64,000 bases of DNA from Bacillota bacterium. Its GTDB lineage: Bacteria; Bacillota; Dethiobacteria; DTU022. The notes beneath the pieces were generated by a model. The model made no database searches. It was not told the DNA's origin and saw nothing but the letters and a program-made list of their open reading frames with translations. This document shows positions 1,483-21,783 of this stretch, piece by piece. Numbering within the stretch: the stretch's first letter is position 1; each line of letters opens with the position of its first letter. The position numbers and the translations under genes are program-made. Location: contig JAABTH010000009.1 in the NCBI GenBank assembly GCA_011389985.1, forward strand, positions 32,837 to 96,836, given 5' to 3'.

Positions 1483-1584
1483 AGAACCACTTCCAGTATT
1501 CTTAATTTAAAAAGCTTGCCGTAAAGGGCAAAACTGTTTTATTATTATACCACAGTTTCATAATTGATAGATCGGGAGCACAAA

Positions 1585-2871: not shown

Positions 2872-2874
2872 AAA

Positions 2875-2903
2875 TTGACGCTCTACTCTGAGCATGTTAA
2901 AAT
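2875..2903 (+). promoter_or_regulatory. sigma-A promoter for the his/aro cluster
   Basis: TTGACG-17 bp-TAAAAT with TGn extension. Confidence 0.7.
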
Positions 2904-2966
2904 ATGGTTGTTCTTTCCAGCTATCCTGCCTGTAATTTATTAGCGCTGCTGAACAGGAGAAGGCCT

Positions 2967-4830: not shown

Positions 4831-4840
4831 GGTGAGCGTT

Positions 4841-5560: not shown

Positions 5561-5586
5561 TATATTATTTTGACGGAGGTTTCGTT

Positions 5587-5967
5587 GTGACTGAAATTAC
5601 CAGAGATGAAGAGTTAAAACCCTTGCAAACAGGAGAACTTAAATATGATCGAAACGGTCTGATCCCTGCTGTTATTCAGGATCATAAAACCGGTGCTGTT
5701 CTGATGGTTGGTTACATGAACGAGGAAGCGCTTAAGCGGACCCTGGCAAACAGGCGGGTCTGTTTCTGGAGCCGCAGCAGGCAGGAATACTGGGTTAAGG
5801 GGGAAACTTCCGGTAATATATTTGATATGCAATCTATTCATGCCGACTGTGATGCTGATGCACTTTTGGTAAAAGTTATACCTCAGGGTCCTGGTCTGGC
5901 CTGCCATACCGGACGTTATTCATGTTTCTTTAACAGTATTAATAACCCGTACCGGCAGGAGGGTTGA
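5587..5967 (+). CDS. hisI: Phosphoribosyl-AMP cyclohydrolase (monofunctional, no HisE domain)
   Basis: WSRSRQEYWVKGETSG, DCDADALL, ACHTGRYSCF. Confidence 0.93.
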   Translation: MTEITRDEELKPLQTGELKYDRNGLIPAVIQDHKTGAVLMVGYMNEEALKRTLANRRVCFWSRSRQEYWVKGETSGNIFDMQSIHADCDADALLVKVIPQGPGLACHTGRYSCFFNSINNPYRQEG

Positions 5968-5968
5968 A

Positions 5969-6766: not shown

Positions 6767-6803
6767 CTTTTATGAATTCAGATAAGATATTGGAGGAGTT
6801 GGC

Positions 6804-7283
6804 ATGTCTGACTTATACTCAAACCGGATTGATACGCCAAAAGGCGTATTTTTATTCCTTTTCAGCGATGCCGGAATTTATGAAATATATTTTCCCGGTT
6901 CAGAACCGGAAAAAGAATACCCGCATCGGTCCCTGCCCTGGCCTGAACTGGGCCGGGATTTTGTTCGTTATCTTCAGGGTGAAATTATAGAATGGAGCAG
7001 ATATCCACTCGATTGCAGCGGGTATCCGCCTTTTATTGCAGCAGTCCTTGAGGAAGTGCGCCGTATCCCGTATGGTGAAGTTATTACCTATCGTCAGGCG
7101 GCTGAGAAAGCCGGTTCACCCCTTGCATGGCGGGCGGCCGGCCAGGCTTTAAAAACTAACCGTCATCCTGTAATAGTCCCCTGCCACCGTGTCGTAGGCA
7201 GCAGCGGTAAACTTGGCGGCTTCAGCGGCCCGCCCGGTTGGAAAAAAATGCTTCTCGATCTGGAGGGAGTAACTGAGATATAA
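6804..7283 (+). CDS. ogt: Methylated-DNA--protein-cysteine methyltransferase
   Basis: IPYGEVITY, RAAGQA, active-site PCHRVV. Confidence 0.92.
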   Translation: MSDLYSNRIDTPKGVFLFLFSDAGIYEIYFPGSEPEKEYPHRSLPWPELGRDFVRYLQGEIIEWSRYPLDCSGYPPFIAAVLEEVRRIPYGEVITYRQAAEKAGSPLAWRAAGQALKTNRHPVIVPCHRVVGSSGKLGGFSGPPGWKKMLLDLEGVTEI

Positions 7284-7393
7284 GGTATCCTTAATGAGCT
7301 GATGTCTGAATACGGGCATAAATAACATTTCTGGTCTGGTTTTAATTTACAAGACCTGTTAAAACATAATTTTGAAAGTGGGAGTTGATTTCA

Positions 7394-8560
7394 ATGCGCT
7401 ACCTTTCCGGAGGAGAATCGCATGGTCCCTGTCTTACAGCAATCATTGAAGGATTACCGGCCGGCCTGGTGCTTTATGCAAACGATATAAATTACCAGCT
7501 AAAACGTCGCCAGCAGGGTTACGGACGCGGGGCAAGAATGGCTATCGAAAAAGACCGGGTAGAATTTATCTCCGGCTTGCGTTTTAATAAAACTCTTGGC
7601 AGCCCCCTGTCCATCCTGATTAAAAACAGGGATTGGGATAACTGGAAAGAGACAATGGCGCCGGAAGGTAAAATTCCCGCTGATCTGGAAAAACTGACCC
7701 GCCCCCGTCCCGGCCATGCTGATTTGGCCGGCGGATTGAAATATAACCATGATGATCTGAGAGATATACTTGAACGTTCCAGTGCCCGTGAAACTGCCAT
7801 GAGAGTGGCGGTTGGAACAGTTGGTCGCCTTTTACTGGAGAAGTTTGGTATCGCCCTATTCAGTCATGTCACCCGCATTGGTTCTGCTGTGTCTGAAATT
7901 AGCGCAGATAAACTGCCGGATTTGGTCGAGCTGACCGAAAACTCGTCTGTGCGATCTGCTGACAGCGAAGCAGAAAAGAAAATGATTGAGGAAATTGATA
8001 AAGCCCGTAAAGATGGTGACACCCTGGGGGGAGTAATCGAACTATATATTACCGGCTTGCCACCAGGGCTTGGCAGCCATGTTCACCCCGATCGTCGCAT
8101 CGATGGTCGCCTTGCAGGTGCTTTAATGAGCATACAGGCGATTAAAGGTGTTGAAATTGGCGCCGGTTTTAAAGCCTCGGCAGGGCGTGGTTCTGAAATT
8201 CACGATCCTATAGTAAAAGATAAAAAAGGCAGAATAAGCCGATCTCAAAACAGGGCAGGAGGCATAGAGGGAGGTATTAGCAACGGCCAGCCACTAATGA
8301 TCAGGTTGGCCATGAAGCCAATTCCGACCTTAACCAGCCCTTTGCCCAGTGTCGACTGGTTAACAGGTCTTGATGCTCCCGGAGCGGCCGAAAGGTCTGA
8401 TGTTTGTGCCGTTCCAGCCGCTGCAGTGGTGGCCGAAGCAGTCGCCGGCTGGGAAATCGCCTGTGCATTTCGTGAAAAATTCGCCGGTGATTTCATTGAA
8501 GAAGTTGAATCTGCTTACCATTTCTACATGGATAAAGTAAGCTTCAGGTTAAACAGATAG
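7394..8560 (+). CDS. aroC: Chorismate synthase
   Basis: GESHGP, RPGHADLAG, ERSSARETA, GGIEGGISNG, RSDVCAVPAA. Confidence 0.97.
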   Translation: MRYLSGGESHGPCLTAIIEGLPAGLVLYANDINYQLKRRQQGYGRGARMAIEKDRVEFISGLRFNKTLGSPLSILIKNRDWDNWKETMAPEGKIPADLEKLTRPRPGHADLAGGLKYNHDDLRDILERSSARETAMRVAVGTVGRLLLEKFGIALFSHVTRIGSAVSEISADKLPDLVELTENSSVRSADSEAEKKMIEEIDKARKDGDTLGGVIELYITGLPPGLGSHVHPDRRIDGRLAGALMSIQAIKGVEIGAGFKASAGRGSEIHDPIVKDKKGRISRSQNRAGGIEGGISNGQPLMIRLAMKPIPTLTSPLPSVDWLTGLDAPGAAERSDVCAVPAAAVVAEAVAGWEIACAFREKFAGDFIEEVESAYHFYMDKVSFRLNR

Positions 8561-8630
8561 AGAAATAAATTTATTTATGGCATCTGGAATAAATATTATA
8601 AATTGGATCAATAGATCAGGGGAGAGATAA

Positions 8631-9725
8631 ATGAAGGGCAGGGAGATTAAAGTAAAAACAGCGGGTTTTACCTATCCTGTGTTAATCGAAACAGGTTCCC
8701 TTAATGATACAGGCAAAAAATTGAACATGCTATTTCCTTCATCCAGGGCTCTTTTAGTCAGCGACACTAAGGTTTATTCTCTTTTCGGTGAAAAAGTTAT
8801 AAAAGCGCTCAATTCTGAAAACTGGCAGGTGTCGACAATTATAATCCGGCCCGGTGAGCGATCGAAAACATTAGCCGGAGCTTCCCGAATATATGATGCT
8901 GCCCTGGCAGCTGAGCTGGATCGCAATTCACCTGTCATTGCTTTAGGTGGTGGGGTAGTAGGTGATTTGGCCGGTTTTGCCGCTTCAACTTTTTTACGCG
9001 GTGTGCCGCTTATTATGCTGCCTACTACACTGCTGGCCCAGGTAGACAGCAGTGTGGGAGGTAAAGTCGCTGTAAATCACCCCTCGGGTAAAAACATAAT
9101 AGGTTCAATCTATCCTCCACGAATTGTCATTATTGATCCTGATACATTAGAAACTCTCGATGTCCGCCAGAGAAAAGCCGGTCTGGCTGAAATTATTAAA
9201 TATGGTATTATAGTAAACGATGATTTTTTCAAATGGCTGGAAAGCAGAATTTCTGACTTACTTCTCGGGAAAAGTAATTTACTGGCTGAAGCAGTTTATC
9301 TATCGCTTAAAGCCAAGGCAATGGTTGTAGAAAAAGACGAGCATGAAACAGATTACAGGAGAATATTGAACTTTGGACATACAGTAGGCCATGCTCTTGA
9401 AGCCGCAACTTCTTACCGCTATTATCTGCACGGAGAAGCTGTATTAATCGGCATGATTGTTGCTTCGCAGATTGCCAATGAGCTTAATCTACTCGGAGAT
9501 GATGAAACTGCGCGAATCAGGCATTTAATTGAGAAAGTAGGGATGAAAAAACCTCCGGCTGGCTTGACTGCCGCTGCAGTAATCGATAAACTAAGGCAAG
9601 ATAAAAAGAGACGGGGCAACGATTTAATCTTTGTACTACCCACACAAATCGGCAGAGTTGAGATTATCCCCGTTAACGATCATAAGCTGATTGAAAGAGC
9701 TGTCCGAAGATACCTGGGCCAATAA
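8631..9725 (+). CDS. aroB: 3-dehydroquinate synthase
   Basis: GGGVVGDLAGF, PTTLLAQVDSSVGGK, LNFGHTVGHALE, LHGEAV. Confidence 0.97.
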   Translation: MKGREIKVKTAGFTYPVLIETGSLNDTGKKLNMLFPSSRALLVSDTKVYSLFGEKVIKALNSENWQVSTIIIRPGERSKTLAGASRIYDAALAAELDRNSPVIALGGGVVGDLAGFAASTFLRGVPLIMLPTTLLAQVDSSVGGKVAVNHPSGKNIIGSIYPPRIVIIDPDTLETLDVRQRKAGLAEIIKYGIIVNDDFFKWLESRISDLLLGKSNLLAEAVYLSLKAKAMVVEKDEHETDYRRILNFGHTVGHALEAATSYRYYLHGEAVLIGMIVASQIANELNLLGDDETARIRHLIEKVGMKKPPAGLTAAAVIDKLRQDKKRRGNDLIFVLPTQIGRVEIIPVNDHKLIERAVRRYLGQ

Positions 9726-9740
9726 AGGGGAAGAAAATTT

Positions 9741-10406
9741 ATGGATGTAATCACTCTGGCAGAAGTTCAGAATAACATACAGGTAAAAACTTTAATAAAG
9801 AAAGCTGACGAAAACTTAGGCGCACTGGGCTATACCGAACATGGCTTTCGGCATTGCCGCCTTACGGCAAAAGCTGCCTGCAGGGTAATATCTGAATTAA
9901 AAGGAGATGCCCGGGAAGCCGAACTTGCCGGCATAGCCGGTTTTATACATGACATAGGTAACGTGATGGGCCGTCGCGAGCATGATGTCGCAGGAGCAAT
10001 CATGGCTTTAAGAATACTGCAGGATATGGGTATGCCGCTTGAAGAAGCGGCCGATGTGGCAGCGGCAATCGGGAATCATGATGAAGAAGAAGGTCGCGTT
10101 GTGAACAGGATTACAGCTGCGCTCATTCTGGCCGACAAATCTGATGTGCATCGCAGCAGGGTCCGTAACCGGGATATTTCAACTTTTGATATTCATGACC
10201 GGGTTAATTATGCTGTTGAGGAATCGCGTCTGAATATTGATCCTGATAAGAAAATAGTTACTCTGTTTTTACGTATCGATACCAGCATGAGCCAGGTCAT
10301 GGAATATTTTGAGATATTTTTATCACGCATGGTGATGTGTCGCAGAGCGGCATCTTTTCTCGATGCCCGCTTTGCATTGATCATAAATGAAGTAGATTTA
10401 CTATAA
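9741..10406 (+). CDS. HD-domain phosphohydrolase
   Basis: EHGFRH...HDIGN...HD...LADKSD. Confidence 0.85.
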   Translation: MDVITLAEVQNNIQVKTLIKKADENLGALGYTEHGFRHCRLTAKAACRVISELKGDAREAELAGIAGFIHDIGNVMGRREHDVAGAIMALRILQDMGMPLEEAADVAAAIGNHDEEEGRVVNRITAALILADKSDVHRSRVRNRDISTFDIHDRVNYAVEESRLNIDPDKKIVTLFLRIDTSMSQVMEYFEIFLSRMVMCRRAASFLDARFALIINEVDLL

Positions 10407-10449
10407 ATTCCAATAGGAATCGTAGAAATGAATGGAGAGTGGTGTGAAG

Positions 10450-11688
10450 ATGAAACCGGCAATTAAGCCGGGCCGCCTGATGATTTTGATTCTGGTCAGC
10501 CTTTTAATTATAGCCTCCGGCTATTTTGCATTCACCAATGCTGCTGACAGGGAAGATGGCATCAAGCGCGGCCTTGATATTGCAGGAGGGCTTTACGTGC
10601 TGCTGGAAGCTGTGGAAACGGGTGACCAGGAGCTCGATGAAGATGCTATTGAGCGTGCGATAACCGTTATCCAGATGCGCGTGGATGAGCTGGGTGTGGC
10701 TGAACCTATTATAGCTGCCCAGGGAGATAACAGAATTCGGATAGAACTGCCTGACATCGAAGATGTTGAACAGGCCCGGGATATTATCGGGCGAACAGCT
10801 ATGCTTAAATTTGTCGGGCCAGACGGAGTCGAAATTTTAACCGGCGCCAACCTGGTCAGGGCCCGTGCGGAAAGAGCTCCAGAGGTTACTCCCTATCCTT
10901 TTATCAGCTTGGAATTTGACCAGGAAGGATCTCAGCTCTTTGCTGAAGCTACTGCTAAATTTTTAAACCAGCCGATTGCCATTATACTTGATGACGAGGT
11001 TATATCGGCCCCCAATGTAGCGGCGGTAATTACCGATGGGAAAGCTGTAATTGAAGGCAATTTTGGCTTTGAAGAGGCGGCAAACCTGGCATTGCTTCTG
11101 CGCAGCGGCTCTTTGCCCGTTGAACTTCGCGAGCTTGAATCGCGGATGATTGGCCCCACCCTTGGTCAGCGGACTGAAGAGATTGCCGTTTATGCTGCGG
11201 CGATAGGTCTGCTGCTGGTTTTACTTTACATGATAATTTACTACCGGATTGCCGGTATTATTGCCGGAGTAGCCCTGGTTTTTTATCTTTCCCTGGTATT
11301 ATGGGCGCTTAACTACCTGCCGACAACGCTTACACTGCCGGGTATAGCCGGCTTGATTCTTTCAATCGGTATGGCTGTCGATGCCAATGTAATTATTTTT
11401 GAGAGGATCAAAGATGAGCTTCGTTCAGGAAGAACTCCCCGCAGCGCTATGGAAGGTGGATTTCAAAGAGCATTCAGGGCGATCCTCGATGCGAATGTTA
11501 CTACCCTTATTGTTACTGTAGTCCTCTTTAGCCTTGCCAGTGGTCCGGTCAGAGGTTTTGCCGTAACTTTATTTATTGGCATTATTTGCAGTATGTTCAC
11601 AGCTATAGTTTTAACCCGTATCCTGATGCGCCTTGCTTTTCAGGCCGGACTCATCCGCAGCGGGGCCTATGTGGGGGTGAAAATATAA
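10450..11688 (+). CDS. secD: Protein translocase subunit SecD
   Basis: GLDIAGG, RVDELGVAEP, IGMAVDANVIIFERIKDE. Confidence 0.96.
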   Translation: MKPAIKPGRLMILILVSLLIIASGYFAFTNAADREDGIKRGLDIAGGLYVLLEAVETGDQELDEDAIERAITVIQMRVDELGVAEPIIAAQGDNRIRIELPDIEDVEQARDIIGRTAMLKFVGPDGVEILTGANLVRARAERAPEVTPYPFISLEFDQEGSQLFAEATAKFLNQPIAIILDDEVISAPNVAAVITDGKAVIEGNFGFEEAANLALLLRSGSLPVELRELESRMIGPTLGQRTEEIAVYAAAIGLLLVLLYMIIYYRIAGIIAGVALVFYLSLVLWALNYLPTTLTLPGIAGLILSIGMAVDANVIIFERIKDELRSGRTPRSAMEGGFQRAFRAILDANVTTLIVTVVLFSLASGPVRGFAVTLFIGIICSMFTAIVLTRILMRLAFQAGLIRSGAYVGVKI

Positions 11689-12608
11689 TGTTCAATTTTA
11701 TTGGTAATCGTCGTAAAGCTTATTTATTGTCAGCCGTAATGGTAATAGCAAGCATTCTGTCACTGGCCATATTTGGCCTTAACCTGGGCATTGATTTTAC
11801 CGGAGGAACCGTTTTGCATTTAAATCTCGGTGAAGATTTTTCAATGGAAGAAGTAGAAGCAGTTATGGCTCCTTTTGAAGAGTTGAGCGGAGCCTCAGTT
11901 CAGATTGTCCAGGCCAGGGATATCACCGGTGAGTTAGCGGAAGAAGGGGTGGTAATTAAAGCGCCGTACATAGAGGAGAGCAGGCGTGATACCCTGATGG
12001 ATGCCTTCAGGGCTAAGTGGCCAAATCTTGATCGAGGCGATCTCAGGATCGAAAGTGTAGGTGCTGTTATCGGCAGTGAACTTGGCCGGCAGGCTTTTAT
12101 ATCTCTTGTTGTTGCTGTTTTTCTGATGGTAATCTATATTACCTTCAGATTTGAGTTTAAATTTGCCGTTGCCACTATTGCTGCACTGCTGCACAATATA
12201 GTAGTTGTAGTAGGTATATTTTCCATTTTGCAGATGGAGATTAATGTTCCTTTTGTTGCAGCCATCCTAACTGTTTTCGGATATTCTGTAAACGATACGA
12301 TAGTTATCTTCGATCGGATTCGTGAGAATATTGTACGCAGGCGCAAGAGCGACTATGCTGTAGTAGTTAACGAGAGTATCAACCAGAACCTGATGCGTTC
12401 AGTTAATACATCTCTTACAACCTTATTTGTATTAGTGGCCCTGCTTTTTGGGTTTCACTATTATATCGGCAGTTTAGATCTAATCGTATTTGTCGTTGCC
12501 TTGATCCTGGGTGTTTTCATCGGTACATATTCGTCGATTTTTATCGCCAGCCCGCTTTGGCTAAACCTTCATGATCTTAAATTAAAAGGTTCTCGCAAAG
12601 CTGCCTGA
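11688..12608 (+). CDS. secF: Protein translocase subunit SecF
   Basis: GIDFTGG, RFEFKF, GYSVNDTIVIFDRIREN; TAATG stop-start overlap with secD. Confidence 0.96.
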   Translation: MFNFIGNRRKAYLLSAVMVIASILSLAIFGLNLGIDFTGGTVLHLNLGEDFSMEEVEAVMAPFEELSGASVQIVQARDITGELAEEGVVIKAPYIEESRRDTLMDAFRAKWPNLDRGDLRIESVGAVIGSELGRQAFISLVVAVFLMVIYITFRFEFKFAVATIAALLHNIVVVVGIFSILQMEINVPFVAAILTVFGYSVNDTIVIFDRIRENIVRRRKSDYAVVVNESINQNLMRSVNTSLTTLFVLVALLFGFHYYIGSLDLIVFVVALILGVFIGTYSSIFIASPLWLNLHDLKLKGSRKAA

Positions 12609-12628
12609 TAAAAATAGGAGGAATTAAG

Positions 12629-13069
12629 ATGAGCTCCTTTTACCTGATTTTAGCTTTGATTTTTAGTCTGCTTATTGCGATTATCGCCTTGGCTAATAAT
12701 GATACCGTTACTGTAAGCTATCTATTCGGCCGCTGTGATGTTTCACTGATTCTGCTTATCCTTGGTTCAGCCTTTGCCGGCGCTCTGGTCGTTGGGCTAT
12801 TCAGCCTCTTTCGCACAATCCGTTCGGCTTTTGCTTTCAGGGAAATGCGACAACGGCAGGAAGCTCTTCAGAAACAGGTTAAGAGCCTTGAAGAAGAAAA
12901 GCTATTCCTCGAAGCCAAGTTAAGCAGGCATTCCTCTGTTCCGGAAGACGAAGAACCGCTAAAAACCGAAGGAACTGAAACAGAAACAGGGCAAGATCAT
13001 AAAAATAATCAAAGTGAAAGTGATTCGGATCATAACGGAAATGAAGGGGTGGAAAATAACCCTTCATGA
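12629..13069 (+). CDS. LapA/DUF1049-family membrane protein with an acidic tail
   Basis: Two N-terminal hydrophobic segments (..ANNDTVTVSYLFG..LSLLILGSAFAG), coiled coil, acidic C-terminus. Confidence 0.7.
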   Translation: MSSFYLILALIFSLLIAIIALANNDTVTVSYLFGRCDVSLILLILGSAFAGALVVGLFSLFRTIRSAFAFREMRQRQEALQKQVKSLEEEKLFLEAKLSRHSSVPEDEEPLKTEGTETETGQDHKNNQSESDSDHNGNEGVENNPS

Positions 13070-15498
13070 GTTTTCGCGGTAGACGGTGGATCTGGCCTGA
13101 AACAGAAGATAATGGCTTTATAAACAAGTTGGCTGAGCAGCTTGATCTGACCCCGGCTCTTGCCCGGCTCTTACACAACCGGGGGATATCTGATCCCCGG
13201 AAGGCCCGGGCATTTTTGGATCCAACGCTGGAACAGCTTTACAGCCCATGGAAGATGCTGGGCATGGATGCCGCTGTCAAGAGAATTGTCAAAGCAATTG
13301 AATCGGGCGAAAAAATAATTGTTCATGGTGATTATGATGCTGACGGTATAACCGCCACGGTTATACTGGTCGAAACACTGCGGGCTCTTGGCGGTAATCC
13401 AGATTTCTTTTTGCCGAGCCGTTTTGATGAAGGATACGGTCTTCACGTTGAACCTCTCAGGCAGTTCAGGGAGGCCGGTGCCGGCCTGGTGATAACTGTT
13501 GACTGTGGCATAAATGCGGTTGAAGAGGCTGCATATGCTTCCGCTATCGGTCTTGATATGATTATTACCGACCATCATCAGCCCCTTTTTCCGCTGCAGG
13601 GCCCTCTTGCCATTATCAACCCGCTTCAGAAAAACTGTTCTTACCCCTTCAAAGAACTTTCAGGGGCCGGCATTGCTTTTAAACTGGCAACCGCTCTTTA
13701 TGAAAAATCGGGCAAATCTTTTCCCGGGCATCTTCTCGATTTGGCTGCACTGGGAACTGCGGCTGACGTAGTTTCTTTGTTAAATGAAAACAGGGTGTTA
13801 GTCTCTTCAGGGCTTGAAGTATTGCGCCGTCTGGATCGGGTTGGTTTCAAAGCGCTCATTGATACTGTCAGTCTTGCCCCTGAGCGGATTAACAGCAAAA
13901 CATTGTCATTTATTCTTGCCCCTGCAGTTAATGCGGCCGGGCGTATGGGCGAAGCTCTTCCCGCTGCCGAACTGCTGCTTGAAACTGATATGTCTCGTGC
14001 AATCGGGTTGGCTGCTAAACTTGACCGTGCCAACCAAAAGCGCCGTTCAACAGAGCAGGTAATTCTCCGTGATGCTACAGCCGCGGCTTTGGAACAGATG
14101 GCCGCTGCCGATCAAATGGTTATCACTCTTGCTGCAGACAACTGGCATCATGGAGTAATCGGTATAGTTGCTTCACGTTTGGTCGAAAAGTTTAATCGAC
14201 CGGTTGCTCTAGTTGCCCTTGACGGTGATGAGGGACGCGGTTCGGCGCGCAGTATTCCCGGTTTTGACATTACCGAGGCACTGGCCAGTTCTTCAGATTT
14301 CCTTTTAAGGTTTGGCGGGCATGAGCAGGCCGCCGGTTTTACCGTATCCCGGGAAAAGATAAATGAATTAAGGGAAAGTCTAAACCGTTATGGATCAGCC
14401 AATATAAAAGAAAGCGATCTTACGCCGCAATTGTATTTGGAAGCGGAACTGCAGGAAGATGATATCAGTCTGGATTTTGCCTCCAGTCTTAGCATAATGG
14501 AACCTTATGGTACTGCTAATTCCCTTCCTCTTTTTGGGAGCCGCTCCTGGGAACTCTTGTCGTGGCGGTCTGTAGGCGCCGATAAAAGCCATTTGAAGCT
14601 TAAGATGAGAAAAAAATTAAGAACAATTGAACCCATCTTTTTTTCTGCAGCCAACCTTGAAGAGAAGCTTGAAAAGGGCCGCAGACTGGATTTGGCCTTC
14701 AGGTTAAAAAAAGGTTACTTCCGGCAGCAGGAGACTCTGGAAGTTGAAATAAAAGATTTAAACTATAGCGATGAAGCAGGTTATCTTGGGTTAAAGATAA
14801 TCGATAAACGTTTCGGTCGCGACCGTTTAAAATGCCTGGGGACAATACTGGCAGACGATAACATCCGGGCGGTAGTATTTACTGCAACAAATTCGCGACT
14901 ACACCAGGTAAAAAGTAAATGTTCGCCGGCAAATTCCGCTAGCTATATCAGCAGCGGCTCGGGCAGCGATTTTCAGGATTATCCTGATCATATCAATACA
15001 GTTATTCTTTTCGACCTGCCTTTATCACCGGAAATCATTAAACCGCTTCTGAACAGGCGGGATAACTCTGGCCAACTCACGATTTACCTTCTCTATAGTG
15101 AAACAGATCTCCAGGTGAACCGCACTATAATTGACCACACCCTGCCGGATGCGGAAAATCTCGCAGCCATCATCAATGAGTTGGAGCATAATAATGTCGT
15201 TAAAATTTTCGATGATTTATCATTGGCAGCAGGTAGCGCAGTTGCCTATCAGCCGGCGGCGGCCTTTTGGGAGAGAGCAGCTAAAATACTTTCTGAAACC
15301 CAAATAATTTCTGCTGATAGTACTCTCTCGGGCGAGAGAGATAAGATCCTCAATGCCTGGGTTGATGCGCTTAATAGTTCCCCCACATATAAAGCTTCAG
15401 TTAAACTGAGAGAAGAATGTGAGCTCTTTCAGAAAGTGCTTCTTGAGAGCAATCCTGCCGAACTGGCAAAATATCTTTACAATTATATATCCGGTTGA
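13066..15498 (+). CDS. recJ: ssDNA-specific exonuclease RecJ with a Firmicute-type C-terminal extension
   Basis: GDYDADG, TVDCG, TDHH, LGTAAD, NAAGR, GSARS, GGHEQAAG. Confidence 0.96.
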   Translation: MSFRGRRWIWPETEDNGFINKLAEQLDLTPALARLLHNRGISDPRKARAFLDPTLEQLYSPWKMLGMDAAVKRIVKAIESGEKIIVHGDYDADGITATVILVETLRALGGNPDFFLPSRFDEGYGLHVEPLRQFREAGAGLVITVDCGINAVEEAAYASAIGLDMIITDHHQPLFPLQGPLAIINPLQKNCSYPFKELSGAGIAFKLATALYEKSGKSFPGHLLDLAALGTAADVVSLLNENRVLVSSGLEVLRRLDRVGFKALIDTVSLAPERINSKTLSFILAPAVNAAGRMGEALPAAELLLETDMSRAIGLAAKLDRANQKRRSTEQVILRDATAAALEQMAAADQMVITLAADNWHHGVIGIVASRLVEKFNRPVALVALDGDEGRGSARSIPGFDITEALASSSDFLLRFGGHEQAAGFTVSREKINELRESLNRYGSANIKESDLTPQLYLEAELQEDDISLDFASSLSIMEPYGTANSLPLFGSRSWELLSWRSVGADKSHLKLKMRKKLRTIEPIFFSAANLEEKLEKGRRLDLAFRLKKGYFRQQETLEVEIKDLNYSDEAGYLGLKIIDKRFGRDRLKCLGTILADDNIRAVVFTATNSRLHQVKSKCSPANSASYISSGSGSDFQDYPDHINTVILFDLPLSPEIIKPLLNRRDNSGQLTIYLLYSETDLQVNRTIIDHTLPDAENLAAIINELEHNNVVKIFDDLSLAAGSAVAYQPAAAFWERAAKILSETQIISADSTLSGERDKILNAWVDALNSSPTYKASVKLREECELFQKVLLESNPAELAKYLYNYISG

Positions 15499-15679
15499 TT
15501 TTTCTCGCATCAGCTCACTTTTCTACAAACAACGGTAAAAGCAAGTCTGCAGTAAAGCTCAGAGATTAATTTGCCCTGCAGCTTATCAAAACAGGCTGGC
15601 GATGGGGCTATAGTATTTATAGTTATTTTTTAGTATTATATAGTTCAAGTAAATAACGATAAGCAGGGTAGTGGAATGT

Positions 15680-17872
15680 ATGCCAGTAAGAGAAAAAAAA
15701 CTGATTGAACTCAAGAAAAATATCCAGCGCTACTATCCCAATCTGGAAGATTGGGCCATGGTAGAAAAAGCTTACGAGTTTTCGCTAAAAGCGCATTCGG
15801 GACAGCTGCGTGAATCAGGGGAATCATATATTATTCACCCACTTGGTGTTGTCCTTATTTTAGCTGAGTTGGAACTTGATCTTGTTACGATTATTGCCGG
15901 TCTCTTGCATGATGTTGTTGAGGATACTGAGGTTACCCTCGATGATATCCGCCATGAATTTGGCGATGAAGTGGCTGCGCTGGTTGATGGGGTTACCAAG
16001 CTGAGCCGTCTGGATTTTACATCGAAGGAAGAACAGCAGGCGGAAACCCTGAGAAAAATGTTTATTGCCATGGCCCAGGATATTCGTGTGGTATTAATAA
16101 AGCTGGCTGACAGAACCCATAACCTCAGGACACTGCGTTATCTGAACACCCACAAGCAAAAAGAGATTGCCCGTGAAACCATAGAAATTTATGCTCCACT
16201 AGCACACCGCCTGGGGATCTATATGATCAAATGGGAGCTCGAAGATTTAGCCTTCCGCTATATGCAGCCAAACGAATATTTTCAACTGGTGGAAAAATTG
16301 GCTAAGAAAAGGCGTGAAAGAGAACATTTTATCAATCGCATTATCTGGATCCTGCAGGATCACCTCTCGGAGTCTTCGATACAAGCTGAGATACAGGGGC
16401 GCCCCAAGCACCTTTATAGTATTTATAATAAGATGAAAAGTCAGGGTAAGGATTTAAACGAAATCTACGATCTCACCGCGATACGGATTATAGTTGATTC
16501 AGTTAAAGATTGCTACCATACCTTAGGAATTGTTCATACCATATGGAAACCGATTCCCGGACGTTTTAAGGACTTTATTGCCATGCCAAAACCGAACATG
16601 TATCAATCACTGCACACCACTGTATTTGCTGCAGAAAATGAGCTTGCCGAAATCCAGATCAGAACCTGGGATATGCACCGTACTGCTGAATATGGTATTG
16701 CTGCTCACTGGCGCTACAAGGAGAAAGTAAAAAACTCCGGCGAGCTTGATGAAAAACTAACCTGGCTGCGCCAGCTGTTGGAATGGCAGCACGACTACCG
16801 GGATGCCCGGGATTTTATCAAAGACCTTAAAGGAGATCTCTTTACTGATGAAGTCTTTGTATTTACTCCCAAAGGTGATGTAGTCGATCTGCCCGCGGGC
16901 TCTGTAACTCTGGATTTTGCCTATAAAATTCATACCGATATCGGTAATCGCTGTACCGGGGCAAAAGTAAATGGCAGGTTGGTTCCCCTCGATTACCAGC
17001 TTAAGACAGGTGATATGGTCGAGGTCGTTACATCCAAGCAGGGTTCACCCAGCCGTGACTGGCTTAACCTGATTAAAACCCCTCACGCAAAAAATAAAAT
17101 ACGCAGTTGGTTTAAAAAAGAACGACGTGAAGAGAATATAGAAAAAGGACGTGAAATGATTGAAAAAGAGATCAGACGGGTAACCGTGGAACAGAGAATC
17201 TCTTTTAAAAACGATATTCTTGAAGATGTCGGGCGTTCATTCAATCTTCTCTCTGTTGACGATCTTTATGCTGCCGTTGGTTATGGCGGCGTCTCAGTCC
17301 ATCAGGTGATCAGCCGGCTTCGCGAAGAATATAAAAAAAGGCAGAGTGACAAAGGCAAGGAAGAAAGCCTGCCTGAACTAAAACCGATGAAGCATTTGAA
17401 ACAGGGATCACCCGGTGTTTCAATAGAGGGTATGGATGGTCTTTTAATGAGAATAGCCCGCTGTTGCAACCCTGTGCCCGGTGATGACATCGTCGGATTT
17501 ATTACCAGGGGCCGTGGTGTTACGGTTCATCGTCGTGATTGTCCCAACCTTGTGCATTATAGCAAAGAAAACGGACGTCTTCTCGATGCAGAGTGGGGCA
17601 GTGCTGATGGTGCTTCATACCCTGTTGAGATCGAAATTAATGCTAACGACCGGAAAAACTTATTAGCTGATATTATGTCGGCTGTAAATGAAAGCAAAGT
17701 CGATATGACTGCTGTTTCTGCGAAAGCTGATAAAAACAGAACTGCTACAATTCATATGACAATGATAATTCGTGATCAGGTTCATCTCGATCAGATCATG
17801 AGCAAGATTCGCAAAATAAAAGATGTTTATTCTGTCCGACGCTATGTTTATGGATCGGGTAGTGAAAAATAG
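15680..17872 (+). CDS. relA: Bifunctional (p)ppGpp synthetase/hydrolase Rel
   Basis: HDVVED hydrolase motif, GRPKHLYSIY, YQSLHT, TGS and ACT domains; alternative GTG at 15671. Confidence 0.97.
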   Translation: MPVREKKLIELKKNIQRYYPNLEDWAMVEKAYEFSLKAHSGQLRESGESYIIHPLGVVLILAELELDLVTIIAGLLHDVVEDTEVTLDDIRHEFGDEVAALVDGVTKLSRLDFTSKEEQQAETLRKMFIAMAQDIRVVLIKLADRTHNLRTLRYLNTHKQKEIARETIEIYAPLAHRLGIYMIKWELEDLAFRYMQPNEYFQLVEKLAKKRREREHFINRIIWILQDHLSESSIQAEIQGRPKHLYSIYNKMKSQGKDLNEIYDLTAIRIIVDSVKDCYHTLGIVHTIWKPIPGRFKDFIAMPKPNMYQSLHTTVFAAENELAEIQIRTWDMHRTAEYGIAAHWRYKEKVKNSGELDEKLTWLRQLLEWQHDYRDARDFIKDLKGDLFTDEVFVFTPKGDVVDLPAGSVTLDFAYKIHTDIGNRCTGAKVNGRLVPLDYQLKTGDMVEVVTSKQGSPSRDWLNLIKTPHAKNKIRSWFKKERREENIEKGREMIEKEIRRVTVEQRISFKNDILEDVGRSFNLLSVDDLYAAVGYGGVSVHQVISRLREEYKKRQSDKGKEESLPELKPMKHLKQGSPGVSIEGMDGLLMRIARCCNPVPGDDIVGFITRGRGVTVHRRDCPNLVHYSKENGRLLDAEWGSADGASYPVEIEINANDRKNLLADIMSAVNESKVDMTAVSAKADKNRTATIHMTMIIRDQVHLDQIMSKIRKIKDVYSVRRYVYGSGSEK

Positions 17873-17956: not shown

Positions 17957-18406
17957 ATGAGAGCAGTAGTGCAGCGAGTTCACAGGGCCAATGTAACAGT
18001 AAAAAATGAAATGATTGGAGAGATCGGTCCCGGCCTGGTAGTATTTTTAGGTGTGGGACATGAAGATGAAAACAAAGATGCCGATTACCTGGCATCAAAA
18101 ATAGCAGCACTGCGTATATTTGAAGATGATGCCGGCCTGATGAATCTTTCGGTGCAGGAAAGTGGCGGTTCAATTCTTTCTGTATCACAATTTACCCTCT
18201 TCGGAGACTGCCGTAAAGGGCGTCGACCTGGTTTCTCGTCCGCTGCACCGCCTGATAGAGCTAAAGAACTTTACGATTATTTCTGTGAGCGTCTGCGTTT
18301 AAGCAATCTCAATGTGGCGACCGGTCAGTTTCAGGCCGAAATGCGAATTCTGGTTGATAATGACGGACCGGTGACAATGCTGCTTGACAGTAAAAGATTA
18401 TTTTAA
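17957..18406 (+). CDS. dtd: D-aminoacyl-tRNA deacylase
   Basis: MRAVVQRV, VSQFTL, GRRPGF, NDGPVT. Confidence 0.97.
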   Translation: MRAVVQRVHRANVTVKNEMIGEIGPGLVVFLGVGHEDENKDADYLASKIAALRIFEDDAGLMNLSVQESGGSILSVSQFTLFGDCRKGRRPGFSSAAPPDRAKELYDYFCERLRLSNLNVATGQFQAEMRILVDNDGPVTMLLDSKRLF

Positions 18407-18431
18407 GAAGTTATCGGAGAGGAGCACAAAG

Positions 18432-21400
18432 ATGGATTATAAGGCCCCACGCGGCACCCGCGACATACTACCGGACGAAGCTTTAAAATGGCAATATCTC
18501 GAGACAAAATACAGGAATTATTGTGAACTCTACGGTTTTGGTGAAATCCGCACTCCCATATTCGAACAGACCGAGCTGTTTGCCCGCAGTGTTGGCGAAG
18601 AGAGCGATATTGTTTCGAAAGAAATGTATTCTTTTAAAGATCGAAGCGGGCGTGAACTTACACTGCGCCCGGAGCTTACTGCTGCTGTAGCACGAGCCTA
18701 CCTTGAGAATAATATGGGAGAAAAATCCCAACCGGTAAAGCTCTACTACAGTGGACCCATGTTTCGCTATGATCGACCCCAGGCCGGCCGTTACCGCCAG
18801 TTTCATCAGTTTGGCCTGGAGATTATCGGAGCAGAGAATGCAGCCGCTGATACGGAGATCATCTCATTTTGCTATCACTTCTTTAAATATCTGCAGATTG
18901 AAAACCTGGCAATTGAACTTAACAGTGTGGGCTGCCCGGTCTGCCGCCCGGGCTATCGGGATGTTTTGATGCCTTATCTTGAGAACATTCAGGATGGCCT
19001 CTGCGGTGATTGTCACAGGCGTTACAAAACCAATCCCATGCGTGTCCTTGACTGCAAGGAAGAAAGCTGCAAAAGCTTAATAGCCGGCGCACCGCGTATG
19101 ACCGAGCATCTCTGTAGCGACTGCGAAAAACATTTTAACGATCTTCAGTCATATCTACACAAACTGCAGATACCTTATAATCTCAACAGCAGCCTGGTTA
19201 GGGGCCTTGATTACTATACCCGTACTGCTTTTGAGATAACAGCCGGCAGTTTGGGTTCACAGTCGTCAATCTGTGGCGGCGGTCGCTATGATCATCTCGT
19301 TGAACACATTGGCGGCCCTTATACTCCGGCAGTGGGTGTTGCATTCGGCAAAGAAAGAGTTATGCTGGCCATGGACTGGTCAAAGGCCTCTTTTGAGACA
19401 GCTCCTCCTGTTTTTATTGCAACCGCCGGAGTCAACCTTGAGGGTGAAGCCCTTCTTTTAGCCGATCAACTAAGAAGCCGCGAAGTAGCAGCTGAGACTG
19501 ATCTTATTGGTAGAAGTCTTAAAGCCCAGATGAAGTATGCCGGACGTCAAAAATATGAAAAAGTAGTGATTATTGGTGAAGATGAAATAGAAAAAGGCCT
19601 TGTCACTATGCGTGATATGGATGGCGGCAACCAGGAAGAGATAACCCGCGAAGCATTATTCTCAGCTCTGCAACAGGAATCAAGTGAGGCCGGAGAAACC
19701 GAAAAAGTAATCAAGGCAGAACTTACCCTGCCCGATCCGGATGCAGATGTCGATAAAACACATTATTGCGGCCTGCTTGATCGATCCCATGCCGGAAAAC
19801 GGATCAAACTGGCCGGTTGGGTTGGCCGTCGCCGCGACCACGGTGGCTTAATCTTTATAGATCTGCGCGATCGCAGCGGCATTATGCAGCTTGTATTCGA
19901 TCAACGCCTTGGCCTGGAATTGTTTAACCAGTCTGAAAGCCTGCGCAGTGAGTATGTTATTGCGGTAGAAGGTGAAGTAGTTAAAAGAACCGATGAAAAT
20001 ATAAACCCCTCACTGCCAACCGGTGAAATTGAGTTATATGTTGACGGGATGAAGATCTTAAACAAATCTAAAACTCCGCCATTCTACATTGAAGATGATC
20101 TAAATGTTGATGAAAACCTTCGCCTGCGTTACCGCTATCTTGACTTAAGAAGACCGGAAATGTTAAAACGTTTGCAGCTTCGTCACCGGGCGGTTAAGGT
20201 AGTTCGGGATTACATGGACAAGTATGATTTTCTGGAAGTTGAAACCCCCCTGTTAACGCGGAGCACCCCGGAAGGGGCCAGAGATTTTCTGGTTCCCAGC
20301 CGTATGCATAATAGTTCATTTTATGCCCTGCCGCAATCGCCTCAGCTTTTTAAGCAGCTCTTAATGGTAAGTGGAATAGAGCGATATTTTCAGATCGCCC
20401 GCTGTTTCCGGGATGAAGATTTGCGAGCTGACCGCCAGCCTGAATTTACTCAGATTGATATAGAAACCTCATTTTTCGGCAGCGAAAATCTTTACGCTTT
20501 GCTCGAAGGTTTGATGGCCAAACTATGGCATGATCTGCATGGGGTAAAGTTAGAACTGCCATTTATGCGAATGCCCTACAAAGAAGCGATGAATCGCTTT
20601 GGCTCCGACAAACCGGATTTGCGCTTTGGCATGGAGCTGATCGATATCGGCGATCTCGCTTCAAAGAGCAATTTCAAAGTATTTAAAACTGCCCTGGAGA
20701 CAGGCGGCTCTGTAAAAGGTTTACGGGTAGCAGGCGGCAGCACTATGAGTCGCAAAGATCTTGATGATCTTACCCTCTTTGCAAGGCAGCTTGGCGCAAA
20801 AGGCCTGGCCTGGACCTTTATCGAAGCAGAGGGTTGGCGTTCGCCAATCAGTAAGTTCTTTGACCAGGACTTGATGCTGGAAATTACTTCGCGCATGGAA
20901 GCTGAAGCAGGAGATGTCTTGCTTTTTGTTGCCGACAGTTGGGAAACAACGTGCCAGGTGCTTGGGCACCTGAGGATTAGGCTGGCTCCTGAAGATATTA
21001 CTGATGAGCCTCATTTCCTTTGGGTCATAGATTTTCCCCTCTTTCATTATGATGCAGAAGAAAAACGTTATGATTCAGACCATCATCCTTTTACAGCTCC
21101 AAGAATTGAAGATTTACCCATACTCGAAAATGATCCTCTCGCTGTCCGGGCTCAGGCTTACGACCTGGTCCTTAACGGGGTTGAGTTGGGTGGTGGCAGT
21201 ATCCGTATTCATGATAGCGATACTCAGGCCAGAATATTTAAATTGCTTGGCTTAACAGAAGAAGAAACTAAGGAAAAATTCGGTTTCCTGCTTGAAGCAC
21301 TCTCCTATGGCGCTCCACCGCATGGAGGACTTGCGCTTGGCCTCGATCGGTTGATAGCCCTGCTAAGTGGCGACGAATCTATCCGTCAGGTGATGTCTTT

Positions 21401-21506
21401 TCCGAAAACAGCGGCGGCCAGCTGCCTGATGACCGGTGCCCCGGCTTTTGTTGATGAAAAGCAGCTTAATGAACTAAAAATACAAATAAAACCTTTAGAG
21501 GAATAA
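18432..21506 (+). CDS. hisS-aspS: Fused histidine--tRNA ligase / aspartate--tRNA ligase (1024 aa)
   Basis: HisRS part: APRGTRD, LRPELTA, FRYDRPQAGRYRQFHQ, VRGLDYY, GGGRYD and the anticodon domain. Then a 28-aa linker. AspRS part: THYCG, RRDHGGLIFIDLRD, LPQSPQLFKQ, RCFRDEDLRADRQPEFTQID, HHPFT, PPHGGLALGLDR. No stop between them. ATG 18432 follows GGAGAGGAG. Confidence 0.93.
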   Translation: MDYKAPRGTRDILPDEALKWQYLETKYRNYCELYGFGEIRTPIFEQTELFARSVGEESDIVSKEMYSFKDRSGRELTLRPELTAAVARAYLENNMGEKSQPVKLYYSGPMFRYDRPQAGRYRQFHQFGLEIIGAENAAADTEIISFCYHFFKYLQIENLAIELNSVGCPVCRPGYRDVLMPYLENIQDGLCGDCHRRYKTNPMRVLDCKEESCKSLIAGAPRMTEHLCSDCEKHFNDLQSYLHKLQIPYNLNSSLVRGLDYYTRTAFEITAGSLGSQSSICGGGRYDHLVEHIGGPYTPAVGVAFGKERVMLAMDWSKASFETAPPVFIATAGVNLEGEALLLADQLRSREVAAETDLIGRSLKAQMKYAGRQKYEKVVIIGEDEIEKGLVTMRDMDGGNQEEITREALFSALQQESSEAGETEKVIKAELTLPDPDADVDKTHYCGLLDRSHAGKRIKLAGWVGRRRDHGGLIFIDLRDRSGIMQLVFDQRLGLELFNQSESLRSEYVIAVEGEVVKRTDENINPSLPTGEIELYVDGMKILNKSKTPPFYIEDDLNVDENLRLRYRYLDLRRPEMLKRLQLRHRAVKVVRDYMDKYDFLEVETPLLTRSTPEGARDFLVPSRMHNSSFYALPQSPQLFKQLLMVSGIERYFQIARCFRDEDLRADRQPEFTQIDIETSFFGSENLYALLEGLMAKLWHDLHGVKLELPFMRMPYKEAMNRFGSDKPDLRFGMELIDIGDLASKSNFKVFKTALETGGSVKGLRVAGGSTMSRKDLDDLTLFARQLGAKGLAWTFIEAEGWRSPISKFFDQDLMLEITSRMEAEAGDVLLFVADSWETTCQVLGHLRIRLAPEDITDEPHFLWVIDFPLFHYDAEEKRYDSDHHPFTAPRIEDLPILENDPLAVRAQAYDLVLNGVELGGGSIRIHDSDTQARIFKLLGLTEEETKEKFGFLLEALSYGAPPHGGLALGLDRLIALLSGDESIRQVMSFPKTAAASCLMTGAPAFVDEKQLNELKIQIKPLEE

Positions 21507-21531: not shown

Positions 21532-21560
21532 TTGCGATTGAGCTGTTTTTGTGCTATGAT
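21532..21560 (+). promoter_or_regulatory. sigma-A promoter for 6S RNA
   Basis: TTGCGA-17 bp-TATGAT with TGn extension. Confidence 0.7.
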
Positions 21561-21588: not shown

Positions 21589-21767
21589 AAAACCCTGCTG
21601 TGTTCGTGACAACCGATAAAGTTTTGAGCTAACACTTATTATACGGGAACCCGGACTTCAGCTGCAGCGCAGCAGCCTTTGCAAAGAGGACCTGTAAACC
21701 AGTTGAGTAGGTACCCACCTTTCGGGGGAACAGTTCAAAACAACGGCCCACGGCATGGCGGGGTTTT
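21589..21767 (+). ncRNA. ssrS: 6S RNA
   Basis: About 180 nt with complementary ends (AAAACCCTGCTGTGTTCGTG ... CACGGCATGGCGGGGTTT) and Firmicute 6S-like motifs (GGTACCCACCT..CAGTTCAAAAC); the position after aspS is the known Firmicute locus. Confidence 0.88.
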
Positions 21768-21783
21768 TTATTGTCTTTTAGCG

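Follow-up and report, generated by a model that had tools for sequence, protein, structure and literature searches.

EPRS is presented in reviews as the bifunctional aminoacyl-tRNA synthetase (PMC4394549, PMC11580382), and among human enzymes it has been called "the only bifunctional tRNA synthetase" (PMC10618286). Textbooks and reviews alike give this place to the animal enzyme and treat multi-synthetase organization as essentially eukaryotic or archaeal. Other fusions that involve a synthetase, taken here from reviews (PMC11580382) or from sub-threshold matches, are AspRS-GatC (PRK12820), LysX (MprF-LysRS; PRK02983), the fused alpha-beta GlyRS, and the double-length TyrRS of trypanosomatids. 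Like the gene described here, each of these joins a synthetase to a translation-related or synthetase-derived module, but none of them joins synthetases of different amino acid specificity. In the stretch of Bacillota DNA that we analyzed (64,000 nucleotides, referred to below as the window), a single ORF holds, at the level of sequence, two complete synthetases of different specificity, HisRS and AspRS.

The resemblance to EPRS lies in the presence of two complete, different synthetases in one polypeptide, in the non-catalytic linker between them, and in the origin by gene fusion. In contrast, EPRS is eukaryotic and combines a class I monomeric GluRS with a class II dimeric ProRS, whereas the fusion described here combines two bacterial class II homodimeric enzymes. 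The linker of EPRS is built from WHEP repeats, which are structured, bind RNA, and have regulatory functions, whereas the linker in the window is short and disordered and contains no domain recognizable by Pfam. EPRS also sits in a multi-synthetase complex, and, unlike those of EPRS, the parent genes of the HisRS-AspRS fusion are operon neighbors. Because Pfam shows only HisRS and AspRS domains, we consider the fusion an analogue of EPRS in organization and not a member of its family. A search of the literature, reviews included, gave no description of a bacterial His-Asp fusion, in agreement with the earlier note on this DNA, according to which no characterized example is known. The protein is seemingly a bacterial counterpart of EPRS that has so far gone undescribed.

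The features of the locus are listed in Table 1. The ORF could begin upstream at TTG 18384 or at ATG 18432, in both cases on the + strand and ending at 21506; from the ATG it encodes 1024 aa. Because GGAGAGGAG is located 7 nt upstream of ATG 18432 and the dtd stop codon (18404-18406) lies 25 nt before it, we take 18432 to be the real start. The 25-nt gap between dtd and the fused gene has no terminator-like site on the + strand, and relA, dtd, and the fused gene are probably co-transcribed. Syntenic dtd genes at four other loci (L013, L014, L018, and L021) match Pfam Tyr_Deacylase. In an Rfam scan, the single T-box of the window is ahead of ileS, and the fused gene has none in front of it. No T-box was found in the 500-nt gap 5' of the split hisS gene of a sister lineage (L014) either, even at E values up to 0.1. 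The absence of a T-box at both the fused gene and the L014 hisS gene indicates that T-box control plays no role in this lineage. The window contains no tRNA genes. Histidine biosynthesis genes are also present in it, namely, hisD and a histidinol phosphatase gene.

Table 1. Positions of the fused gene, its parts, and its upstream neighbors in the window
Feature	Position	Strand	Description
relA	15671-17872		upstream of dtd
dtd (D-aminoacyl-tRNA deacylase)	17957..18406	+	from ORF list; directly upstream of fused gene
Ribosome-binding site GGAGAGGAG	18416..18424	+	read from sequence; strong; 7 nt 5' of ATG 18432
Fused hisS-aspS gene	18432..21506	+	1024 codons plus stop; from ORF list, Pfam and NCBIfam matches, homologues
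HisRS module, aa 1-413	18432..19670	+	class IIa core with Cys-rich insertion domain; HGTP anticodon-binding domain
Linker, aa 414-441 (28 aa)	19671..19754	+	variable; A/G/E/P/S-rich; predicted disordered
Bacterial-type AspRS module, aa 442-1024	19755..21503	+	OB-fold anticodon-binding domain; class IIb core; GAD insertion

The HisRS half matches Pfam tRNA-synt_His at aa 8 to 308 and HGTP_anticodon (PF03129) at aa 327 to 415. The NCBIfam hisS equivalog TIGR00442 aligns almost from end to end, with model positions 1 to 405 of 406 on aa 4 to 405 and a score of 523 bits (cut-off, 286.75). Class II motifs 1 to 3 can be recognized in this half, as can the RPE and GGGRYD boxes specific to HisRS, and all of them are conserved. 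Across 51 fused sequences, the invariant motif residues are P42, R79-P80-E81, F111-R112-Y113..R122-Q123-F124, G283-G284-R285-Y286, G306, and E308-R309. The best solved relative of this half is 1qe0, over aa 4 to 410, and the AF2 model places a C-terminal helix at aa 406 to 419. The Cys-rich insertion was considered as a trait specific to the fusion and rejected, since split relatives and Clostridium have it too.

The AspRS half matches the Pfam OB-fold family tRNA_anti-codon (PF01336) at aa 459 to 543, tRNA-synt_2 (PF00152) at aa 560 to 993, and GAD (PF02938) at aa 751 to 844. NCBIfam aspS PRK00476 aligns model positions 4 to 587 of 590 with aa 441 to 1020 at 839 bits (cut-off, 443), and TIGR00459 scores 772 bits (cut-off, 374). 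The half opens with KTHYCG, the counterpart of the usual M-R-T-H-Y-C-G N terminus without the initiator Met. The residues invariant among the 51 fused sequences are Q635-S636-P637-Q638; F659-R660-D661-E662-D663..R668-Q669-P670-E671-F672-T673-Q674; H884-H885-P886-F887-T888; and G966..G970-D972-R973. The QSPQ box and motifs 2 and 3 are among them. The best solved relatives, over aa 442 to 1020, are 6hhv, 1efw, 4wj3, and 1c0a, and the D-type (6hhv and 1c0a) and ND-type (4wj3) structures match about equally. The models for two known fusions score well below their cut-offs: the bifunctional AspRS/GatC model PRK12820 reaches 645.7 bits (cut-off, 1379) with a match that stops at position 615 of 723, and the LysX model PRK02983 reaches 141 bits (cut-off, 742). 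Based on the ORF list, the Pfam domains, and the end-to-end NCBIfam matches, we agree with the claim of the earlier note that two class II synthetases, both complete, are contained in one polypeptide, and its figures (1024 aa in all, ~413 aa of HisRS, a 28-aa linker at 19671-19754, and ~583 aa of AspRS) are all correct.

HisRS has known paralogues, HisZ among them, and hisD and the histidinol phosphatase gene share the window with the fused gene. One half might accordingly be a non-catalytic paralogue, either a HisZ-like regulator or a repurposed AspRS-like domain, which would leave the protein without two activities. We regard this as highly improbable. The HisZ model TIGR00443 scores 177.7 bits, below its cut-off of 271.65, whereas the hisS model is far above its own (523 versus 287), and the protein does have the anticodon-binding domain. 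In addition, the catalytic residues of both halves are all invariant, and the locus occupies the orthologous hisS-aspS position.

The linker is the part of the protein that varies. Among 86 proteins, mean pairwise identity is 70% for HisRS, 73% for AspRS, and 17% for the linker, which ranges from 24 to 46 aa and is always open and in frame. Identity to the closest relative falls to 36% in the linker, versus 84% and 90% in the flanking domains. No column conserved at ≥90% occurs between Q401 and C446 in the 51 fused sequences. In the AF2 monomer model, the modules are well folded, pLDDT is below 50-57 at aa 417 to 435, no docking or contact is seen between modules, and pTM is 0.45. The linker directly bridges two anticodon-binding domains, the C-terminal domain of HisRS and the N-terminal OB fold of AspRS. 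It does contain a semi-conserved A-E-V-x-L-P motif in the main clade (AELTLP at aa 429 to 434 in the window), whose proline, P434, is kept in 66 of 67 main-clade sequences. The motif is missing from a second fused clade and from the fusions found in Acidobacteriota. Conservation of this kind would not be expected of a purely passive spacer.

An exposed, disordered linker with a short conserved motif that could serve as a processing site raises the possibility that the long polypeptide is a precursor cleaved in the linker, or that AspRS is made by non-canonical internal initiation, with separate enzymes as the result. In one public annotation AspRS does begin at an ATT inside the A-E-V-x-L-P motif. 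However, we find this explanation very unlikely. The window protein has no in-frame ATG, GTG, or TTG between aa 397 and 484, and in five fused loci the linker and its surroundings contain no in-frame start preceded by an SD; a canonical start codon with an SD is absent there from all fused loci examined. The ATT start, at L013, was chosen in annotation and has no SD ahead of it, and the second fused clade and the Acidobacteriota fusions do not have the motif. In bacteria, housekeeping enzymes are not usually matured by specific cleavage.

The search for co-linear fused homologues proposed in the earlier note showed that the closest relatives are fused, not split, which is the opposite of an outcome that the note named as refuting. 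Approximately 86 full-length clusters from NCBI, JGI, ENA, and Logan share the architecture, with lengths of 1022 to 1051 aa and identities of 59 to 80%, and the fused ORF was also read in the DNA of four MAG contigs (L001, L002, L013, and L021). The fused loci share the synteny recJ-relA-dtd-[fusion]-6S-mgtE-mraZ, and the named relatives are Dethiobacter-related "Syntrophomonadaceae" MAGs from soda lakes. By comparison of these sequences, an entire group of uncultured Bacillota, made up of soda-lake and anaerobe members, retains the HisRS-AspRS fusion.

Lost stops and frameshifts do generate false fusions of this type. Six high-GC candidates (P0096, P0097, P0101, P0102, P0105, and P0117) were rejected as frameshift or read-through artefacts without a HisRS anticodon domain; in L020 the coding sequence is interrupted by a stop, the frame breaks at about nt 4041, and a split gene lies alongside. 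For the window, however, a sequencing or assembly artefact or a pseudogene confined to this one assembly is so improbable that we set it aside. The junction is open and the domains on both sides are complete, the ~86 clusters come from independent projects, and their linkers differ by whole codons. The same open junction in ~86 clusters from four data sources, and in MAG DNA, excludes a local assembly or frameshift error.

The architecture is rare, with one fused representative among the best 150 of 1.84 billion, although adjacent hisS and aspS genes are common. Two fusions from Acidobacteriota (P0094 and P0095) share 71% identity, lie in a synteny that differs from that of Bacillota, and have unrelated, P/A-rich linkers of ~16 and ~30 aa. 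The Acidobacteriota fusion evidently arose independently. P0093, which had appeared to be a close split relative, was rejected as such: its entry is a truncated annotation beginning at ATT, and its contig holds an intact 1032-aa fused ORF. Apart from this mis-annotated entry, the protein database contains no stand-alone AspRS with more than 70% identity.

Separate, adjacent hisS and aspS genes, described in the earlier note as the normal state in Firmicutes, were indeed seen in Clostridium ganghwense (L006), in two MAGs (L005 and L009), and in two sister lineages (L014 and L018). These split relatives are 53 to 69% identical to the fused protein. The enzymes are orthologous, the order is the same, relA and dtd lie upstream, and 6S RNA lies downstream. 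In contrast to the split pairs, which have two ORFs, a stop codon, a 2- to 57-nt spacer, and a separate aspS start, the window keeps neither the stop nor the signals of the spacer nor a start for aspS. In L014 the gap is 10 nt and the genes are in different frames. In L018 the genes are in the same frame, separated by a 57-nt spacer in which just two stops occur; if it were read through, a linker ~30 aa long would result. In neighbor-joining trees of fused and split sequences (200 bootstraps), the split lineages have no firm placement, and a clade that unites every fused sequence and leaves out the split ones receives a bootstrap value of 30%; the fusion may have originated once or twice in Bacillota.

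Based on these comparisons, we think it likely that the gene is a genuine, evolutionarily maintained fusion of adjacent, co-transcribed hisS and aspS genes that arose by read-through and has a bifunctional product. The fusion would be explained by two co-transcribed genes having a short in-frame spacer that was open to read-through. Loss of the hisS stop codon or codons would have allowed the intergenic spacer to be read through, joining the C-terminal anticodon domain of HisRS to the OB fold of AspRS via a disordered tether of ~25 to 45 residues whose sequence would be free to vary. After decay of the aspS start signals, purifying selection against stops and frameshifts in the tether could then have locked the fusion in. 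Both halves have kept every catalytic and motif 1 (dimer interface) residue, under constraint as strong as that on stand-alone enzymes, and AspRS no longer has a start codon or a ribosome-binding site to itself. Because the residues of both halves are conserved and the AspRS start signals are lost, the product is most probably a single bifunctional polypeptide of ~115 kDa that charges tRNA-His and tRNA-Asp; a non-discriminating AspRS would charge tRNA-Asn as well. There is no sign of a new catalytic function, and the fusion may just link two ordinary enzymes.

In the 51 fused sequences the motif 1 proline never varies in either half, and therefore both dimer interfaces are probably retained. 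The earlier note held that two such interfaces must give a doubly tethered dimer or higher-order chains, a minimal bacterial multi-synthetase assembly; this is a sensible proposal, but "must" goes too far, since the monomer model has a disordered tether and no docked modules. The modules would fold independently, as beads on a string. Most likely, the same two chains would pair twice, HisRS with HisRS and AspRS with AspRS, in a closed homodimer with four active sites, and synthesis of the two enzymes would be obligatorily 1:1 without translational re-initiation. A stable bacterial fusion of this kind is a natural experiment in which two independent dimer interfaces lie in one chain, and it offers a simple model in which to ask if synthetase tethering has any kinetic or regulatory value.

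A bolder reading, which we hold only tentatively and consider doubtful, is that this is the first natural bacterial synthetase polypeptide with two specificities, that it forms a closed four-site particle or higher-order chains by way of two independent class II dimer interfaces, that it was selected for tethering of the two anticodon-binding domains, and that it evolved at least twice, in Bacillota and in Acidobacteriota. As part of this reading, the selective advantage would lie in coordinated charging of the G/Q34-U35 tRNAs for His, Asp, and perhaps Asn, or in stabilization of the enzymes. If it is correct, the protein would be a true minimal bacterial multi-synthetase complex.

Set directly against a neutral event that became locked in, an adaptive fusion in which a tethered HisRS2-AspRS2 serves as a minimal multi-synthetase complex seems unlikely to us. 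The gains might include channeled or coordinated charging of tRNAs with G/Q34-U35 anticodons (His GUG and Asp GUC), enzyme stability in haloalkaline, energy-limited cells, or docking of a partner by A-E-V-x-L-P. Retention of the fusion over deep divergence, down to 59% identity, is consistent with adaptation, although loss of the aspS start signals explains retention equally well. The tether joins the anticodon-binding domains directly and carries a semi-conserved motif in the main clade, but the rest of it is unconstrained at 17% identity, and the AF2 model (pTM, 0.45) has no inter-module contact. The independent origin and persistence in Acidobacteriota, together with the rarity of fusion (one among the best 150) despite common hisS-aspS adjacency, also favor adaptation; on the other side, the sister lineages with split genes do well. 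Should the read-through fusion prove to be a neutral event that became locked in, it would remain a clean and datable fusion of operon neighbors, and the intermediate state, in-frame genes with two stops between them, is preserved in a sister lineage.

These proteins are already in public databases, though mislabeled. In public records the fused proteins appear simply as "aspartate--tRNA ligase," and one entry has lost its HisRS part altogether. Because of this labeling and truncation, genomes of an abundant soda-lake clade can seem to be without HisRS in automated surveys.

A single open frame on the plus strand of the window runs from a TTG at 18384 to 21506. The ATG at 18432, which lies just 25 nt after the dtd stop codon and has an GGAGAGGAG site 7 nt upstream, is the functional start, and the product is 1,024 aa long. 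The ORF listing (18432 to 21506) agrees with the single 1,024-aa ORF described in an earlier note on this DNA, and Pfam and NCBIfam matches show that the anatomy proposed there was correct (~413 aa of histidyl-tRNA synthetase [HisRS], a 28-aa linker, and ~583 aa of aspartyl-tRNA synthetase [AspRS]). The hisS equivalog TIGR00442 is covered at model positions 1 to 405 of 406 (523 bits) and the aspS equivalog PRK00476 at positions 4 to 587 of 590 (839 bits), both far over the cutoff; the NCBIfam models for HisZ, AspRS-GatC, LysX, and archaeal-type AspRS all score under their cutoffs against the fusion.

A protein search found ~86 clusters (at 90% identity) of full-length, co-linear fused homologs, which are 1,022 to 1,051 aa long, are 59 to 80% identical to the fusion with 100% query coverage, have the same seven Pfam domains, and come from NCBI, JGI, ENA, and Logan assemblies. 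The fused ORF was also read in the DNA of two soda-lake MAG contigs (L001 and L002), of contig L013, and of L021, a member of a second fused clade. The fused contigs and the window share the gene order recJ-relA-dtd-fusion-6S RNA-mgtE-mraZ-rsmH. The recurrence of the fusion across these four sources and contigs answers the concern, raised in the earlier note, that the junction was an assembly error. The fusion in the window is no artifact, and an artifactual origin of the fusion is scarcely conceivable.

P0093, a 596-aa database protein, was considered as a split close relative and rejected, since its contig (L013) holds an intact fused ORF of 1,032 aa. As deposited, the gene begins with an ATT codon within the linker, and the HisRS part is left unannotated. 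Every named public match to the fusion is labeled only "aspartate--tRNA ligase," and owing to such mishandled annotation, genomes with the fusion would appear to lack HisRS in automated surveys. The named carriers are MAGs, recorded as "Syntrophomonadaceae bacterium CSSed..." or "Bacillota bacterium," and no cultured carrier was found among the named matches. The CSSed MAGs originate from Cock Soda Lake sediment, where more than 50 such MAGs, akin to uncultured Dethiobacter relatives, make up 5 to 20% of the community (PMC6146748).

Across 51 aligned fused proteins, the catalytic signatures of both enzymes are all invariant, and it is very improbable that one half of the fusion is noncatalytic. 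The same alignment has no column that is ≥90% conserved between Q401 and C446. The 86 full-length proteins from both fused Bacillota clades have mean pairwise identities of 70% in HisRS, 73% in AspRS, and 17% in the linker, a segment of 24 to 46 residues that is rich in A, G, E, P, and S and uninterrupted in every protein. The pattern also holds for the closest relative (MAG KA22), whose flanking modules are 84% and 90% identical but whose linker is only 36% identical. Free drift of the linker sequence, with selection keeping the reading frame open, is the mark of a functional fusion. Based on these sequence comparisons, the fusion is likely a real, maintained, bifunctional polypeptide.

The AspRS module begins with K-T-H-Y-C-G, the counterpart of the usual M-R-T-H-Y-C-G with the initiator codon lost. 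No ATG, GTG, or TTG preceded by a Shine-Dalgarno sequence is present in or near the linker of any fused locus examined, and the window has no such codon whatsoever between residues 397 and 484. With no usable internal start codon, AspRS would be made solely within the long chain; release of AspRS by posttranslational cleavage, or its synthesis by noncanonical internal initiation, is improbable.

No PDB chain spanning both halves was found; the best structures are 1qe0 and 1kmm for HisRS (aa 4 to 411 of the fusion) and 6hhv, 1efw, 4wj3, and 1c0a for AspRS (aa 442 to 1020). In an AlphaFold2 monomer model computed from the 51-sequence alignment, the modules are well folded and the HisRS C-terminal helix spans aa 406 to 419, but the pTM is just 0.45 and the pLDDT of aa 417 to 435 is <50 to 57. 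As modeled, this means two rigid bodies and a disordered tether, without confident docking. The tether directly links the two anticodon-binding domains. Motif-1 conservation and the length of the tether suggest, as the likeliest assembly, a closed homodimer that would have four active sites and in which the same two chains would form both class II interfaces. The fusion poses an attractive structural question.

In related Clostridia, hisS (~417 aa) and aspS (~594 aa) are separate and 2 to 30 nt apart, as the earlier note had stated for Firmicutes. Two truly split, fully syntenic lineages (L014 to L017, and L018) fall within the same 100%-supported clade that holds the fused proteins. Read-through of the L018 spacer would yield a linker of ~30 residues, the length observed in the fusions. 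The L018 arrangement looks like either the direct forerunner of the fusion or a recent return to split genes, and it is plausibly a snapshot of the prefusion state. In a bootstrapped neighbor-joining tree of concatenated HisRS and AspRS cores, support is 100% for the fused clades plus L014 and L018, 90% for the main fused clade, and 30% for monophyly of all fused sequences without the split ones, values by which one fusion, two fusions, and fusion followed by fission are indistinguishable.

A simple neutral route to the fusion is available. Loss of the hisS stop codon and read-through of the spacer probably created it, and loss by aspS of its own start signals probably fixed it; the product is likely two independent, active class II synthetases on a flexible tether. 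Compulsory 1:1 synthesis of HisRS and AspRS would be the consequence. The earlier note's interpretation is supported in part: the fusion is real and conserved (~86 clusters), and the multisynthetase assembly proposed there is hypothetical. An adaptive role as a minimal multisynthetase complex is unlikely: deep retention, independent recurrence, the rarity of the architecture, and an A-E-V-x-L-P linker motif in the main clade (P434 in 66/67, L433 in 55/67, and V431 in 51/67) speak for it, but the linker drifts freely and sister lineages with split genes are healthy. The motif is absent from the second fused clade and from Acidobacteriota fusions. Sequence analysis gave no hint of new chemistry.

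The Acidobacteriota HisRS-AspRS fusion is a well-supported separate, independent case by sequence and synteny. Its two proteins (P0094 and P0095) are 71% identical to each other, and their linkers (~16 and ~30 aa) are P/A-rich and unrelated. The synteny is rpsF-rpsR-rplI...fusion-phoH-ybeY, with the fusion flanked by a PQQ beta-propeller gene and phoH-ybeY. The singletons P0092 and P0104 are possible additional examples. Six high-GC (71%) "fusions" without the HisRS anticodon domain (P0096, P0097, P0101, P0102, P0105, and P0117) were rejected as artifacts, read-through of frameshifted assemblies. In one such locus, L020, similarity and frame break at ~nt 4041, a stop lies within a conserved N-terminal motif, the AspRS part retains its own Met, and a neighboring lactamase-fold gene is also split in two. 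In an exhaustive search of 1.84 billion representatives at 50% identity, one of the best 150 matches is fused (P0074) and the others are ordinary ~590-aa AspRS; the architecture is therefore rare, though hisS-aspS adjacency is common.

Reviews and a database paper name EPRS as the fused or bifunctional synthetase, and the other fusions they list each combine modules of the same specificity (alpha-beta GlyRS, double TyrRS, and AlaRS, PheRS, and PylRS isoforms) (PMC4394549, PMC11580382, PMC10618286). The His-Asp fusion resembles EPRS in carrying two synthetases of different specificity per chain. It is not an EPRS family member: it joins other enzymes, lacks a WHEP domain, comes from bacteria, and pairs two synthetases that are both dimeric and of class II. 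The earlier note named no characterized bacterial His-Asp fusion, and our literature search, whose coverage is incomplete, likewise found no description. This is apparently an undescribed, clean, conserved bacterial bifunctional synthetase, whose proteins are already public under the AspRS label.

Features of the fusion, its relatives, and the window
Feature	Locus	Position	Strand	Remarks
tRNA-synt_His	fusion	aa 8-308		Pfam
HGTP_anticodon	fusion	aa 327-415		Pfam
OB-fold tRNA_anti-codon	fusion	aa 459-543		Pfam
tRNA-synt_2	fusion	aa 560-993		Pfam
GAD insertion	fusion	aa 751-844		Pfam
HisRS invariant signatures	51 fused proteins			motif-1 P42, RPE, FRY..RQF, GGRY, G..ER
AspRS invariant signatures	51 fused proteins			motif-1 P606, QSPQ, FRDED..RQPEFTQ, HHPFT, G..GxDR
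HisRS insertion cysteines	fusion	C168, C171, C191, C194, C208, C213, C228, C231		CxxC...CxxC...CxxxxC...CxxC
Linker motif AELTLP	window	19716-19733 (aa 429-434)	+	eight residues ahead of AspRS core
6S (SsrS) RNA gene	window	21589-21768	+	95 bits; directly 3' of fused gene
6S RNA	L013	6881-7060		
6S RNA	L002	9157-9332		
6S RNA	L014	7365-7541		
6S RNA	L006 (Clostridium ganghwense)	9130-9313		
Misannotated fused gene	L013 (GCA_051748445.1, JBNJHL010000003.1)	3693-6791		intact HisRS coding sequence (1.3 kb) left without annotation
Split hisS, aspS	L014-L017			10-nt gap; different frames
Split hisS, aspS	L018 (GCA_964585925.1)	3854-4060		57-nt spacer, same frame, two stops only (TGA, TAA); aspS start TTG
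Acidobacteriota fusion	L019	4001-7051		
Acidobacteriota fusion	L022 (GCA_044345325.1)	4001-7096		
Artifact	L020 (ERZ25039550 contig_4949)	2926-5898		high GC
T-box leader	window	45157-45391	+	sole T-box in window; 5' of ileS

Eight cysteines of the HisRS insertion domain, spread over 18933 to 19126 (aa 168 to 231), are each ≥90% conserved, a pattern that suggests one or two metal sites. HisRS of the split relatives and of Clostridium has the set too, and P0104 lacks it, so it has no tie to the fusion. A promoter-like site (TTGCGA-17-TATGAT, TG; extended -10 element) lies at 21532 to 21560, between the fused gene and the 6S RNA gene, whose position after aspS is kept in fused and split relatives, including Clostridium.

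No T-box was found 5' of the fused gene or of the split hisS in L014. The listed GTG start (45360) of the ileS ORF (45360 to 48212, plus strand) overlaps the T-box; the true start is therefore farther downstream (TIGR00392 aligns only from residue 38 on). Upstream of the fused gene, positions 1564 to 15498 hold a mixture of genes for aromatic and histidine biosynthesis (aroA, hisD, histidinol phosphatase, aroC, and aroB), followed by secD, secF, and recJ. The secD (10432 to 11688) and secF (11586 to 12608, TTG) ORFs, as listed, overlap by ~100 nt, which probably places the true secF start farther downstream.
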